From contig OZ024741.1 in NCBI GenBank assembly GCA_964016885.1, positions 308,946,001 to 309,010,000 of the forward strand: 64,000 bases of DNA, given 5' to 3'. Shown here one piece after another: positions 6,442-61,188 of the stretch (the stretch's first letter is position 1; each line of letters starts with the position of its first letter). The DNA comes from Eledone cirrhosa. Lineage: Eukaryota. Under the pieces are notes generated by a model. The model was not told the origin of the DNA and ran no database searches. It saw only the letters and a program-made list of their open reading frames with translations. The translations under genes and the position numbers were made by a program.

Positions 6442-6508
6442 TATTTTATCTGATGAGGACGTACTGTTGAAGTTAGCTCAGTACCTCTGAAATATGTATA
6501 ATGAAATA
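6442..6508 (+). ncRNA. Type I hammerhead ribozyme, family A
   Basis: TATTTTAT-CTGATGA-GGACGTACTG[loop]CAGTACCTCT-GAAA-TATGTATA^ATGAAATA. Stems I and II, short self-complementary stem III, AUA triplet. Confidence 0.75.
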
Positions 6509-6600
6509 TACTTGATCACACGAATGTCTATTTCTGTTAATATTTTGAATTAATATATATATATATATATATATATATATATATATATATATATATATAT

Positions 6601-6873
6601 ATAAAGTAGCGGAGCAAGCGGTTATCAAACAATTCTCTAAATAAATTAACGTTGGACAGGAAGCGAAATATTTACTTACTGTAAGGCTTGCAACCTTATA
6701 GTGTGGAAATAGGCTGTCTGAAGATTCATTTCTTTCCATTAGAAATTCTCTGGATTTCCAATCTTTTGGAATGATGAAACCGTCGGTAACAGCAACAGAA
6801 CAGGTGATTATTTAAATCGTTTTTTAATTTATTTAGAGAATTGTTTGATAACCGCTTGCTCCGCTACTTTTTA
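6601..6873. repeat. Inverted repeat with ~49 bp arms next to (TA)n
   Basis: aaagtagcggagcaagcggttatcaaacaattctctaaataaattaa is inverted at ~6825-6872. Confidence 0.8.
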
Positions 6874-7138
6874 TATTGTTCTGGTATCTCGAATTAGTAC
6901 CATTGAACCACAAATATTATAAACAACTTGAATATTTCTACAAGTACATAGTACCTGTTGAAGTATTCATCCACTTTTATAATATAAATATATATATATA
7001 TATATATATATATATATATATATATATATATATATATATATTTCTATTTTGACATTATAGTCACTTATATATTATGCAATACTGTTGGCTTCACGCTCAC
7101 AATAATTTCTATACTTTCTTTTATATATATATATATAT

Positions 7139-7740
7139 ATAAACGGAGAAAATGAAACGAAATTTCATTTCTCACTCTCAGTACGGCTGTTACTTAAATA
7201 TAAGTATGTATACGTACATACATATATTTATACAGACGTACAGTAGTATGTATATATACATACTACTGTATGTCTGTATACATATATGTATGTACGTATA
7301 CATACGTATATTTAAGTAACAGCCGTACTAAGAGTGAGAAATGAAATTTCGTTTCATTTTTTCCGTTTATCGTTTTCGGTATGCCCGGCCGATTAACTCA
7401 ATCGATATGCAAATTAGGCTGGTCAGCCGTTAATATGCATAAGGAAAGTATATACTTTCAGACGTTCAATCATCTGGCAGGAAGATATACGTTGCTGACG
7501 ATAGCTAATAAGCTTGAAACTAGTACAGCGTTCCTTTGTCAGTTTAGAACAAACGAGCAACGATGGTTGCTGGACACTACGGCTTAATTCGGGATGTTTG
7601 TTTACAAACACACCGAGAATTATAATAAATGTTCGGTGAATCCCATACGTACATATATATATATATATGTGTGCATGTATGTATATATACATACTACAGT
7701 ACGTCTGTATACATATATGTATGTACGTATACATACTTAT
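7139..7740 (+). mobile_element. Family-B hammerhead-bearing repeat with inverted partial copy, (TA)n-flanked
   Basis: 7139-7255 is inverted against 7260-7370. Homologous to 5734-6205 and 48785-49160. Confidence 0.65.
7489..7531 (+). ncRNA. Minimal type I hammerhead ribozyme, family B
   Basis: ACGTTG-CTGACGA-TAGCTAATAAGCTT-GAAA-CTAGTA^CAGCGT. Palindromic stem III (ACTAGT), GUA triplet. Confidence 0.8.
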
Positions 7741-8220
7741 ATATATATATATATATATATACAGGGTGTTCCCCCGAAATATATACACACTTAAACAGCA
7801 TTCTAATAAATATATGTATATATTTTTTGGGAGCACCCTATATATATATGTGTGAGTGCACGCGCGCGCGCACACACACACACACACACACACACACACA
7901 CACACACACACACACACACACACACACACACACACACACACACACACACACACACACACACACACACAGAAAGAGAGAAAGAGAGAAGTAGACAACATTC
8001 AGATACACCAAGTTCTCACAGCCCTTCCCTTCCTGCTCCGTGTTGTTGTCTCCCTTTTGTCTGTGTCTGTTAATGTCTCATTGCAACAAGCTGTCACTAC
8101 ACAAGCGTTAAATGCATTAGTATGGCGACAGTGTACATGCTGCTCTACTACTGAGGCATTCATTATTTACGGCTTACATTCATGTAGATTTGTGACATTC
8201 ATGATGCTGTTGTTGCTGTT

Positions 8221-59128: not shown

Positions 59129-59529
59129 TCTTTTCATTCGAAGAATATAAAATTCTTGAATTTAAATTACGAACTAGCGTTATCCAAAACTGTTCCCGAG
59201 GTGAGAGTGAATGAAGTGGAATCAATTTTTTCAAGGGCCGAAGTAAAGATAGAGGCAGAGGGAGGTAGGTCAAATCGGTCGCCACTATCACTAGTAAGCA
59301 GTCGGAACGACCAAATTTTTTCTCAACATAGAGGAGCATAGTAATAATAGGATATGTGTTCCTTCACGCACGAGGCGCTAAGGGACGCATGTATTGTCCA
59401 ACCAAATGCCAATGTAGTTCAATGGCAGGTTAATAAATTAACGAGCCAGAACATATATAATCAAGGTTTAGCAAATAATGAAAAAGTTTCAAAATAAATT
59501 TTAAAAAATTGACTTTACCTACTATAGTT

Positions 59530-59612
59530 ACCTTTACCGATCGGTTTCGAATCTCAAAAATAAACGGAGACCATACGGCCTTCGTTGCAAAGAAAGATTC
59601 TCGTCAGAAGGT
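59530..59612 (-). ncRNA. Type I hammerhead ribozyme, family E copy 2
   Basis: Identical direct repeat 484 nt from copy 1 (58973-59177 repeated at 59457-59659). Confidence 0.8.
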
Positions 59613-59719
59613 TCTTTTCATTCGAAGAATATAAAATTCTTGAATTTAAATTACGAACTATATATATATATATATATATATATAGTTCGTAATTTAAATT
59701 CAAGAATTATATATATATA

Positions 59720-60890
59720 TATTGGTTTTCTGTTCAGCTCTGCTGATGAATGATATTCCAACCGTGACCATCTCCACTGAAAGTTTTCATGAAATAGTCT
59801 TTTAAGACTATACAGAGCATTTGATGTTATTCCAAATTGAAGGATAAGTGTTTCAAACTTTGTTTTATCATGAGTTAAAGGTCTATAGATTTTTCCATGG
59901 ATTTTACTAAATTCTGTGGATGAATTTGTATCCTGATTCTCTTTTGAGATGAGTTTGAGTTATTTTTCCTAAATCTTTCGTTAACTACTTTTCCCATCTT
60001 GACGTTATAGTCGCATATATGTTATAGAATGCCGTTAGCTTCTTGCTAAAACAATCTCTATACGTCTCATTTATATATATATATATATATATATATATAT
60101 ATATATATATATATATATATATATATATATATATACTAGGTATTACATTTTTTTCCCACATCTTACGTTATCTATTTTCACATTTTGACGCTATAGTCAC
60201 ATATATTATGGAATACTGTTGGCTTCTTTCTACAATACTTTCTATACCTTTCATTTATATATTTATACTCGGATTTCTTTCCTAGAGTGCTTAAATTATT
60301 TGTGACTAATCCCGGTATTTAAAAAAAAAAAAAACGCGATAATATTGCTTTTTGCTGAACTCCTTATTGTAGAGTTTTTTTCGGAATGTTTTTGACTGTT
60401 GTTTCATGTAAACAAACATTCGTCTCATTCTGACGTCACCAGCCCTGTTTTTCCACATGTGCGTTTTATTTTCATAATCACGCATGATGTTAAACTAGCC
60501 TGCTTTTAAATTCCCTTTTTGGCATATTAATCAGTGAGAATCTGGCTATCGTGTTGAGCTCTGCTGATGATCGTATTCCAACCGTGACCATCTCCACTGA
60601 AAGTTTACGTGAAATAGTCTTTTTCAAGACTATACAGAGCATTTGTAGTTGTCCCAAATTGAAGGATGAGTATTTTAAACTTTATTTTATCATGAGTTAA
60701 GGCTCTATTGATTTTTCCCTGGATTTCACTAAATTCTGTTGGATGAATCTATATCCTGATTCTTTTTGAATTGAGTTTGAATTATTTTTCCCACATCTTA
60801 CGTTAACTATTTTCCCATTTTTACTCTATAGTCACTTATATATTATGGAATACTGTTGGCTTTTTGCTACAATACTTTCTATACCTTTCA
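59720..60890. repeat. Diverged local duplications of an unclassified interspersed repeat
   Basis: ~59730-60070 resembles ~60553-60890. A partial copy lies at 60148-60260 and a fragment at ~7042-7125. Confidence 0.7.
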
Positions 60891-61128
60891 TTTATATATA
60901 TACATATATATATATATATGTGTGTGTGTGTGTGTGTGTGTGTGTGTGTGTGTGTGTGTGTGTGTGTGTGTGTGTGTGTGTGTGTGTGTGTGTGTGTTTG
61001 GGTGTGTGTGTGTGTGTGTGTGTGTGTGTGTGTGTATATATATATATAAGGCGGTCACCCACGCTGGCAACTGGTGGCTCTGGCCGCTTTCAGGTCTTTA
61101 TTATATTCCTTTATTAGATAATTTTCGT

Positions 61129-61188
61129 AACACCTGATGATGTCACCGGGTTCATGCTGAACCCGGTGATTGAAATGTGTATAGTGTT
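61129..61188 (+). ncRNA. Type I hammerhead ribozyme, family D
   Basis: AACAC-CTGATGA-TG TCACCGGGTTCA[TGC]TGAACCCGGTGA TT-GAAA-TGTGTATA^GTGTT. It lies between ~38-bp inverted repeats (61045-61082 / 61258-61296) flanked by (TA)n. Confidence 0.8.

Follow-up and report, generated by a model that had tools for sequence, protein, structure and literature searches.

We analysed a window of 64,000 nucleotides of the Eledone cirrhosa genome (assembly GCA_964016885.1, contig OZ024741.1, positions 308,946,001 to 309,010,000 of the forward strand; positions given below are counted from its first base). Outside a 29-kb satellite, the window carries 16 intact cores of hammerhead ribozymes, which come from 13 insertions and sit on two kinds of mobile element: truncated ends (pseudo long terminal repeats, pseudo-LTRs) of a Penelope-like element (PLE) of the Hydra clade, and short non-coding units of the retrozyme type. 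A preliminary description of the window had counted at least 12 such motifs; all 12 are there, and four more had been overlooked (+6718, -48705, +59743 and +60564). The intact motifs, with families labelled by capital letters, are the following.

6442..6508, plus strand: family A (A3) hammerhead, predicted cleavage after 6500 (AUA), in the truncated end of a PLE of Hydra type (about 6258-6553) that has (TA)n tracts on either side
6713..6793, plus strand: family H hammerhead, overlooked earlier, predicted cleavage after 6788, in fragment 6604-6869 of a 469-nt tandem unit with a 46-bp inverted end
7489..7531, plus strand: family B hammerhead, predicted cleavage after 7525, in insertion 7139-7745, made of an inverted 5' piece and about 1.25 units of a 424-426 nt family B retrozyme
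43494..43554, minus strand: family A (A4) hammerhead, intact core with a single stem I mismatch, predicted cleavage after 43502, in PLE end 43442-43606
48631..48713, minus strand: family G hammerhead, overlooked earlier, 5-bp helix III and weakened stem II, predicted cleavage after 48639, in permuted unit 48456-48790
48997..49039, minus strand: family B hammerhead, predicted cleavage after 49003, in copy 48801-49163
54535..54581, minus strand: family A (A1) hammerhead, stem II 16 nt shorter, predicted cleavage after 54543, in the inverted 5' copy 54483-54649
54703..54765, plus strand: family A (A1) hammerhead of a Hydra-clade PLE 3' pseudo-LTR, in the direct copy 54649-54903, with the (TA)n end 146 nt past the predicted cleavage site 54757
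55927..55976, minus strand: family C hammerhead, predicted cleavage after 55935, in the second unit of the 1.6-unit tandem 55792-56501
56368..56417, minus strand: family C hammerhead, predicted cleavage after 56376, 441 nt from its partner, with an inverted 5' piece at 56501-56616
56797..56862, minus strand: family A (A2) hammerhead, predicted cleavage after 56805, 92.6% identical to the pseudo-LTR of locus L225, a Hydra copy with a 781-codon open frame
59046..59128, minus strand: family E hammerhead with palindromic helix III, predicted cleavage after 59051, at the 3' end of the 1.43-unit tandem 58969-59660
59530..59612, minus strand: family E hammerhead, predicted cleavage after 59535, 484 nt from its partner at 59046 and identical to it over 151 bp
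59737..59818, plus strand: family F hammerhead, overlooked earlier, with a 7-8 bp helix III folding as a monomer, predicted cleavage after 59812, in copy 59723-60083
60558..60640, plus strand: family F hammerhead, overlooked earlier, predicted cleavage after 60634, in the 1.2-unit partial tandem 60150-60902 of a 628-nt unit
61129..61188, plus strand: family D hammerhead with a 13-bp stem II, predicted cleavage after 61183, in element 61049-61292 with a 34-bp inverted end

The ribozyme fold and its abundance

The type I core (C3-U-G-A-N-G-A9, G12-A-A-A15.1 and U16.1-H17) is complete in all 16 motifs, and 14 of them also satisfy a type I descriptor (stem I of at least 4 bp, stem II of at least 3 bp, helix III of at least 2 bp), with three helices round the core and helix I open-ended. 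The descriptor misses the copy at 43494, which has a U-U mismatch at the third stem I pair, and the one at 48631, with its weakened stem II. The dozen cores described before all have their CTGANGA, GAAA and NUH, the coordinates reported for them are the exact outer ends of stem I, and 11 satisfy the descriptor, the exception being 43494. They cannot, however, be counted as 12 separate events, because the pairs 54535/54703, 55927/56368 and 59046/59530 each belong to a single insertion. Neither were the five families first recognised all clearly unrelated: A and D share a type of helix III and an AUA triplet, which makes unrelatedness doubtful for that pair.

The 14 descriptor matches lie in 34,796 non-satellite bases, where 200 local dinucleotide shuffles gave a mean of 0.04 and a maximum of 1. 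The motif frequency is thus far above that of shuffled sequence. There are 23 CTGANGA sites outside the satellite versus 11.8 expected; those at 4113, 45615, 48184, 48441, 49332 and 52698 fail the descriptor and were rejected as hammerheads, and a core scan allowing one mismatch added just one weak site.

The fold can be assessed further in a set of 340 descriptor matches from 1.08 Mb of DNA, largely chosen for carrying these families, among which about 25 visibly distinct hammerhead families were counted by eye. Stem I pair 5, which the descriptor does not demand, is paired in 78% of 41 groups versus 38% when strands are reshuffled, and pair 6 in 66% versus 41%; pairs 7 and 8 are at chance level. 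Among 41 distinct helices III, pair 3 is formed in 95% versus 49% after reshuffling, and pair 4 in 91% versus 46%. When 59 distinct A-type sequences were gathered without any demand for stem II pairing, their stem II had a median z of -3.0 relative to shuffles, with 71% below -2. Stems therefore covary across families. Helix III is mostly self-complementary, a design associated with dimer-dependent cleavage by Cervera and de la Pena (2014, PMC4209133). As a monomer it folds in F and G (-4 to -6 kcal/mol) and little in E, and has no stable fold in A, B, C, D and H; as a self-duplex it reaches -11 to -18 kcal/mol in E, F, G and H, -5 to -9 in C, and -4.8 in B. By core, helices and covariation the 16 motifs are type I hammerhead ribozymes, their self-cleavage being a prediction. 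The Rfam hammerhead models, with which the preliminary description had proposed a genome-wide scan, gave no match at gathering score in the window (among the matches listed) or in eight loci; the matches listed from Rfam scans were all miRNA-like, on simple repeats, and under gathering score. Annotation based on Rfam hence misses this population.

Genome-wide counts were made in the whole assembly (2,996 Mb, 1,796 contigs) as exact matches to family patterns, with reversed-pattern controls giving 0 for each. There are 31,475 matches for family A, 34,919 for B-type patterns including relatives, 1,861 for C, 1,458 for F and 1,044 for E. Family D has 37, its pattern being too strict to cover the variant that is commoner, and 605 first-look candidates. 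The exact matches sum to 70,794 and are split about equally between the assembly strands. Copies of A, B and E are 92-98% identical (E 97-98%), those of D 80-88%. In a blind sample of forty 10-kb stretches at round-number positions (400 kb), we found 20 descriptor matches versus 0.6 in shuffles, i.e. one per 20 kb, which extrapolates to about 145,000 hammerheads in the genome (bootstrap 70,000-235,000). The window was said to hold about one motif per 3 kb. It is indeed dense, with one hammerhead per 2.2-2.5 kb, but this is an approximately 8-fold enrichment over the genome average. TA tracts are also more frequent in the window (18.7 per 10 kb) than in the blind sample (10.5). We dropped the idea that this is the densest known hammerhead population, since published counts rest on other descriptors, and Schistosoma may have denser hammerheads. 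Overall, these data describe a dense and diverse population of predicted type I hammerheads with a link to PLEs.

Two kinds of carrier element

Family A copies have a common 3' end 146 nt (or 54 nt) past the predicted cleavage site, followed by (TA)n. They are 5'-truncated at varying points, often with an inverted copy, and most are shorter than 400 nt. Using as query an open reading frame (ORF) region that lacks the ribozyme, we found an A core about 1 kb downstream of the ORF, on the same strand, in 9 of 12 loci. Eight long-frame loci were examined, of which L223, L226 and L227 have complete-looking ORFs of 743 codons. A cores flank this ORF on both sides in L223 and L226, and the upstream predicted cut lies 194 nt (L223) and 187 nt (L227) before the ATG. 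Locus L031 displays the whole arrangement, from an inverted copy through a frameshifted ORF for reverse transcriptase (RT) and endonuclease to an AT-rich 3' untranslated region (UTR) with a nested B dimer and then the ribozyme. The subfamilies at 56797 and 6442 are also tied to Hydra ORFs, and a relative of the 6442 hammerhead sits head-to-head with a Hydra RT ORF in L282. The expected link to full PLE ORFs, and the high copy number, are thus borne out for this family.

The ORF encodes RWR, DKT and YRDD motifs, a CxCX5C linker (CNCRNKSNC), CxxC-E (CDLCIEE) and N-CxH (NNLFSCCRH), and it has no CCHH. This is the Hydra signature as defined by Craig et al. (2021, PMC8557442). Its endonuclease was recognised by motif only (VVY..YVG, R, E, N), and a search with its predicted structure (pLDDT 72) finds RTs of retrons, DRT and telomerase (E 1e-7 to 1e-5). 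Family A has the other traits of the clade, namely hammerhead pseudo-LTRs, 5' truncation, an inverted 5' copy, a tail and a (TA)n target. We conclude, with the clade assigned by motifs, that family A is the 3' pseudo-LTR of a 5'-truncated, autonomous Hydra-clade PLE. A Hydra RT query gave 41,497 first-look candidates genome-wide, and Hydra-clade PLEs may be a major repeat class in this genome, though one that Pfam does not recognise.

The other hammerheads are carried by units of a different nature. Families B, C, E, F and H form full tandems, with same-strand spacings of 424-426 nt (B), 437 nt (C), 483-485 nt (E), 627-642 nt (F) and 469 nt (H). Family G showed no two-core tandem in 15 loci; its copies read through their own 3' end into the 5' part, as in a circular permutation. 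The units of B, C, E and F have a GC content of 33-39% and a longest ATG-initiated ORF of 50-132 codons, and they are mutually dissimilar, the exception being B and its own relative. Folded as circles, B, C and the B relative lie 7 to 12 standard deviations below base shuffles, E lies 3 and F 2 below. On these traits, B, C, E, F, G and H are 424-630 nt non-coding units of the kind called non-LTR retrozymes.

Their 3' ends followed by TA group at one or two sites in each family: at about +212 and +273 nt past the cleavage site in B, at +74 in E and at +258 in F, each at an internal TTAT, and at about +140 and +175 in C. Two arrays are particularly informative. In L080, which lies between two TA tracts, eight of nine direct E units show no difference over 485 nt, and theirs is also the haplotype of the inverted unit, from which four other E arrays or copies differ; a single insertion from one template fits this pattern. 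At L216-L217 (G000:C1:5738324-5752446), 31 tandem 466-nt units of the B relative extend over 14.3 kb, with an inverted copy, TA tracts on both flanks and a 70-nt tail.

Family D fits neither description as closely. Its 5' ends cluster about 235 nt upstream of the predicted cleavage site. No same-strand second copy was found in 25 pattern loci or 24 DNA-search loci, and no linked ORF among these 49. We considered whether it is tied to the Neptune-type remnant that it adjoins in the window, and rejected this, as no CTGANGA...GAAA was found within about 1.5 kb behind 11 relatives of the remnant.

Insertion into TA tracts and mobilisation

The families have in common an insertion anatomy of the PLE type. 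They target (TA)n, their 3' junctions are fixed at 55-275 nt beyond the cleavage site, and an inverted 5' copy is frequent; head-to-head inverted junctions occur in 15 of 30 loci of A, 15 of 20 of B and 14 of 25 of C. We thus favour, with a probability of about 0.8, the reading that the hammerheads are carried by two kinds of element, Hydra PLE ends and retrozyme units, and that both were probably inserted into (TA)n by a Penelope-type RT/endonuclease. For the units, this enzyme is suggested by the anatomy, because they have no sequence link to PLE loci. The likeliest mobilising partner is the Hydra PLE, because it is abundant and young, has intact ORFs and targets (TA)n.

Mobilisation might proceed as follows. 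Read-through transcripts would self-cleave, mostly as dimers by way of the self-complementary helix III, possibly as monomers in F and G, and this would free unit-length RNA; in a full PLE, upstream cleavage would take place about 190 nt ahead of the ATG. The PLE endonuclease would nick (TA)n, and the nicked strand would prime reverse transcription from an internal UUAU that lies 55-275 nt 3' of the cleavage site. The template would be a re-ligated circle or an uncut multimer, because copies cross the cleavage site and often exceed one unit. Second-strand priming would leave the inverted 5' copy with its different 3' end. Each insertion retains TA tracts at its flanks, so that elements nest and cluster, which would explain the local excess of hammerheads.

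Several results weigh against this reading. By the same test, inverted junctions are rare in E (3 of 20), D (6 of 49) and F (none of 25). The units of B, C, E and F lack similarity to the six PLE loci tested, barring nested B copies, and Neptune-type and other PLEs are also present in the genome. The 31-unit array has 20 variable columns, several of them common to scattered units and partly periodic, which a single monomer circle would not produce and which requires a multimeric template or later exchange. As for the protein, the family A Hydra ORF has no relevant Pfam match, just 1 of 26 aligned proteins matches RVT_1 or GIY-YIG, and weakly, and the profile of the Hydra ORF matches a canonical PLE weakly (probability 17%, E 0.0015), although colinearly over 393 columns. 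As for the ribozymes, in A and D not even the duplex form of helix III is strong (-3.2 to +0.6 kcal/mol; A -2 to -3, D none), the lowest-energy structure of most monomers is not the hammerhead (z of +0.1 to -3.6), and the shuffle and covariation tests overstate significance because the families are related. Furthermore, the minimal PLE hammerheads of PMC4209133 are described as cleaving poorly, and eight of nine Xenopus retrozyme dimers were reported as uncleaved (Li, Clavereau and Pollet, 2026, preprint 10.64898/2026.07.22.740005).

Some of these results would be accommodated by a different process, in which PLE enzymes mobilise the units from long, linear, uncut read-through RNA, arrays grow by unequal exchange, and the hammerheads, a legacy of the pseudo-LTRs, seldom or never cut in the cell. 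Copies do end downstream of the cleavage site, running through it; the 31-unit array and an F array have shared, partly periodic variants; helix III of A and D is weak; and published tests, as reported, found low or no cleavage. Yet cores are invariant and stems covary across some 25 otherwise dissimilar families, which requires selection on the ribozyme fold in the source elements. Moreover, B, C and the B relative are strongly self-paired as circles, and circular RNAs have been demonstrated for mussel retrozymes (PMC7229834). We consider the linear template unlikely, but a serious competitor of the self-cleaving one.

The preliminary description had taken all families for non-autonomous elements. 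This stands for B, C and E, and six of the eight families in the window are indeed short non-coding units; most copies of A are also shorter than 400 nt. It fails for family A, which accounts for 5 of the 12 motifs then listed, since its copies reach to varying lengths into a 1-kb 3' UTR and the RT-endonuclease ORF, and A cores lie on both sides of intact ORFs. As a statement on all families it is refuted by A and scarcely tenable. A function for the host, such as cutting introns or UTRs of host transcripts, is at least as improbable: at one per 20 kb, many hammerheads should presumably fall in host transcription units, but copies are young, lie in mobile elements, occur about equally on both strands and decay freely, as the relics attest, and the window yielded no mapped host gene. 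Finally, chance matches, or palindromes made by fold-back insertions, might be suspected in AT-rich DNA full of inverted repeats, with a two-fold excess of CTGANGA sites and no Rfam score, but are refuted by the shuffles (14 versus 0.04), the 70,794 pattern matches versus none in controls, and the covariation.

A further repeat, family X, is non-coding and 150 nt long, and its pattern is matched 53,042 times in the genome (control 0). In the window it occupies 55541-55764, as a direct copy on the plus strand (about 55625-55764) preceded by an inverted copy. It has TA flanks and the inverted 5' copy, begins sharply at its 5' end and terminates at either of two 3' positions 80 nt apart, and it resembles the 3' half of a hammerhead, with GAAAC, a helix with a GAGCUC palindrome, and GUC. 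We rejected its reading as a truncated ordinary hammerhead, as no matching 5' half turned up: CTGANGA is present within 130 nt upstream in none of the 87 matches examined. Family X has no Rfam match and its alignment is without covariation (1 of 27 pairs), so that structure statistics do not support its reading as a half hammerhead.

A bolder version of the self-cleaving scheme would hold that the genome has more than 100,000 hammerheads of at least 25 families; that retrozyme circles unrelated in sequence are copied by rolling-circle, target-primed reverse transcription with Hydra enzymes, from nicked (TA)n at an internal UUAU and for up to 14 kb per event; and that family X, the most abundant of the passengers, shed half of its hammerhead and relies for cleavage or definition on action in trans or on an RNA motif not yet described. 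Taken as a whole, we regard this as speculative and doubtful.

Known systems and other features of the window

Both kinds of element have already been published, and the population described here is notable for its scale, its diversity and its informative junctions. Within the Hydra clade (PMC8557442), the supplement lists an octopus element, Hydra-1_Obim of Octopus bimaculoides, with a hammerhead and a (TA)n preference. Family A resembles the clade, as described there, in its C-terminal GIY-YIG-type endonuclease without CCHH, its CxCX5C linker, DKT and RW(K/R), as well as in its canonical hammerhead, (TA)n targets, partial tandems and tailed, inverted 5' copies. It differs in its 3' UTR of 1-1.9 kb, which makes the element longer than the usual <3 kb. 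Tails reach 92 nt in A and 150 nt in D, compared with the 30-40 bp described for the clade. Helix III of family A (AUAURUAU with an AUA triplet) also differs from that of Hydra-1_Obim (ACCA-A-UGGU), which is nearer those of families E and H. By eye, the family A protein is set apart from Hydra-1_Obim as a distinct family.

Animal non-LTR retrozymes were described by Cervera and de la Pena (2020, PMC7229834), who report their circular RNAs in mussel, with about 5,000 copies, and in axolotl, with up to 120,000, and in the 2026 preprint, which gives them a PLE origin. The units studied here are similar in that they do not code, are poor in GC (33-39%), carry a single type I hammerhead per tandem unit, and are dispersed as monomers to 31-mers alongside PLEs. 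They are longer (424-630 nt versus circles of 170-400 nt reported in invertebrates), their helix III forms a full hairpin or has a palindrome of greater length, and they are known from DNA alone, in contrast to the circular RNA of mussel and axolotl. They are linked to insertion of the PLE type by their TA targets, their fixed 3' junctions at internal sites and their inverted 5' copies, an anatomy that we did not find described for retrozymes in the available text of these two sources. The words 'octopus' and 'cephalopod' are absent from PMC7229834, and the four invertebrates of the preprint are given as three insects and an anthozoan.

The minimal and palindromic-helix-III hammerheads of PLE pseudo-LTRs were described in PMC4209133. 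Those found here have the same type I topology, the extra nucleotide after A9, the palindromic 15.2-16.2 region and the dimer design, and like the elements of that account they mostly occur as single truncated copies or opposite-strand pairs 100-700 bp apart. Unlike them, just the relics at 51846 and 61443 are truly minimal (GAAACGUH), whereas the 16 intact motifs have helix III regions of 6-20 nt, and G10.1-C11.1 is often replaced. Among cephalopods, 235 Hammerhead_1 matches are on record for the giant squid (PMC6962438), and a 2026 repeat annotation of Octopus vulgaris (PMC13282606) reports active Penelope families in a main text without the words 'ribozyme' or 'hammerhead'. A search that left subscription journals uncovered yielded no paper on retrozymes of cephalopods, nor on any cephalopod population as large as this one. 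The published papers, so far as their available text goes, leave open how retrozymes are mobilised and what hammerheads do in PLEs. This genome offers young, high-copy retrozymes (E) and intact candidate partner ORFs, and since the insertion junctions predict the priming site to the base, the mechanism can be put to an RT/endonuclease assay.

The window also contains decayed relatives of these elements. The five relics noted before (about 5957, 43222, 39092, 51846 and 61443) are all present with broken cores, and one had gone unlisted.

5486..6210: family B insertion with mutated core (relic at about 5957) and an inverted 5' piece
38760..39135, plus strand: C-terminal piece of a PLE GIY-YIG ORF, with a hammerhead relic (39092) without helix III about 230 nt on
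43169..43405: family A relic (mutated core, about 43222) and the 3' tail of a partner copy
51795..51930, plus strand: relic of a minimal (GAAACGUU) hammerhead family; in L042 the family's intact form follows a Neptune-type endonuclease at a distance of 479 nt
56964..57370, minus strand: family D relic with deleted core, absent from the earlier list
57452..57990, plus strand: broken thumb/linker/GIY-YIG part of a Neptune-type PLE, with a CX4CxxC linker (CCHH in relatives)
61372..61535, plus strand: relic of another minimal (GAAACGUU) hammerhead family, with mutated core (about 61443)

Both GIY-YIG remnants reported earlier (38765 and 57450) were upheld by similarity to genomic PLE ORFs. Positions 38760-38858 resemble the C-terminus of a PLE ORF bearing RVT_1 and GIY-YIG (tblastn E 1.7e-6), and 57452-57990 shares 69-75% identity with genomic Neptune-type ORFs, among them one that scores on Pfam GIY-YIG; the window piece by itself has no Pfam match. 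As a link between the hammerheads and PLEs, the remnants are of PLE origin but of other types than the ORF of family A.

Other repeats complete the window. A near-perfect inverted repeat of 151 bp with an 11-nt spacer (55015-55327) adjoins a TA tract and is probably the fold-back end of another PLE-type element. At 551-2253 and 50641-51694, a 400-620 bp repeat, partly tandem and 74-96% alike, lies in (ACAT)n tracts; it has no hammerhead by the descriptor and is possibly a (CATA)n-targeting element. On visual inspection, the region 52360-53110 resembles a non-LTR retrotransposon of the kind with a restriction-like endonuclease, reduced to its broken 3' end, and 43800-46100 and 47500-48440 hold non-simple repeats that resemble fragments of DNA transposons or Helitrons, with 151-bp subrepeats at 47747-48021. 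The 29-kb compound satellite (8217-37409) consists of three arrays (periods of 18/36/54, 27/54/81 and 45 nt) with an extreme G/T strand skew. Its frames are open for up to 5,279 codons (GGGYGV/GGGNGV on the plus strand, TIATTN on the minus strand), but we rejected its reading as one giant exon, as there is no continuous frame and the open stretches shift frames.

Elsewhere in the genome, hemocyanin domain matches form three same-strand clusters on C1 (G000:C1:173745629-173909524) and an inverted pair on C26 (21933048-22016816), with two divergent matches on C27. Molluscan hemocyanin is thus encoded, and in at least one cluster each gene has seven domain matches. Seven hemocyanin units mark octopods, so the hemocyanin genes by themselves point to a mollusc, probably an octopod. 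For one unit, the best single-unit PDB chain is 1js8 (855 bits), ahead of 4yd9_C (738), which we take to be an octopus and a squid protein, respectively.

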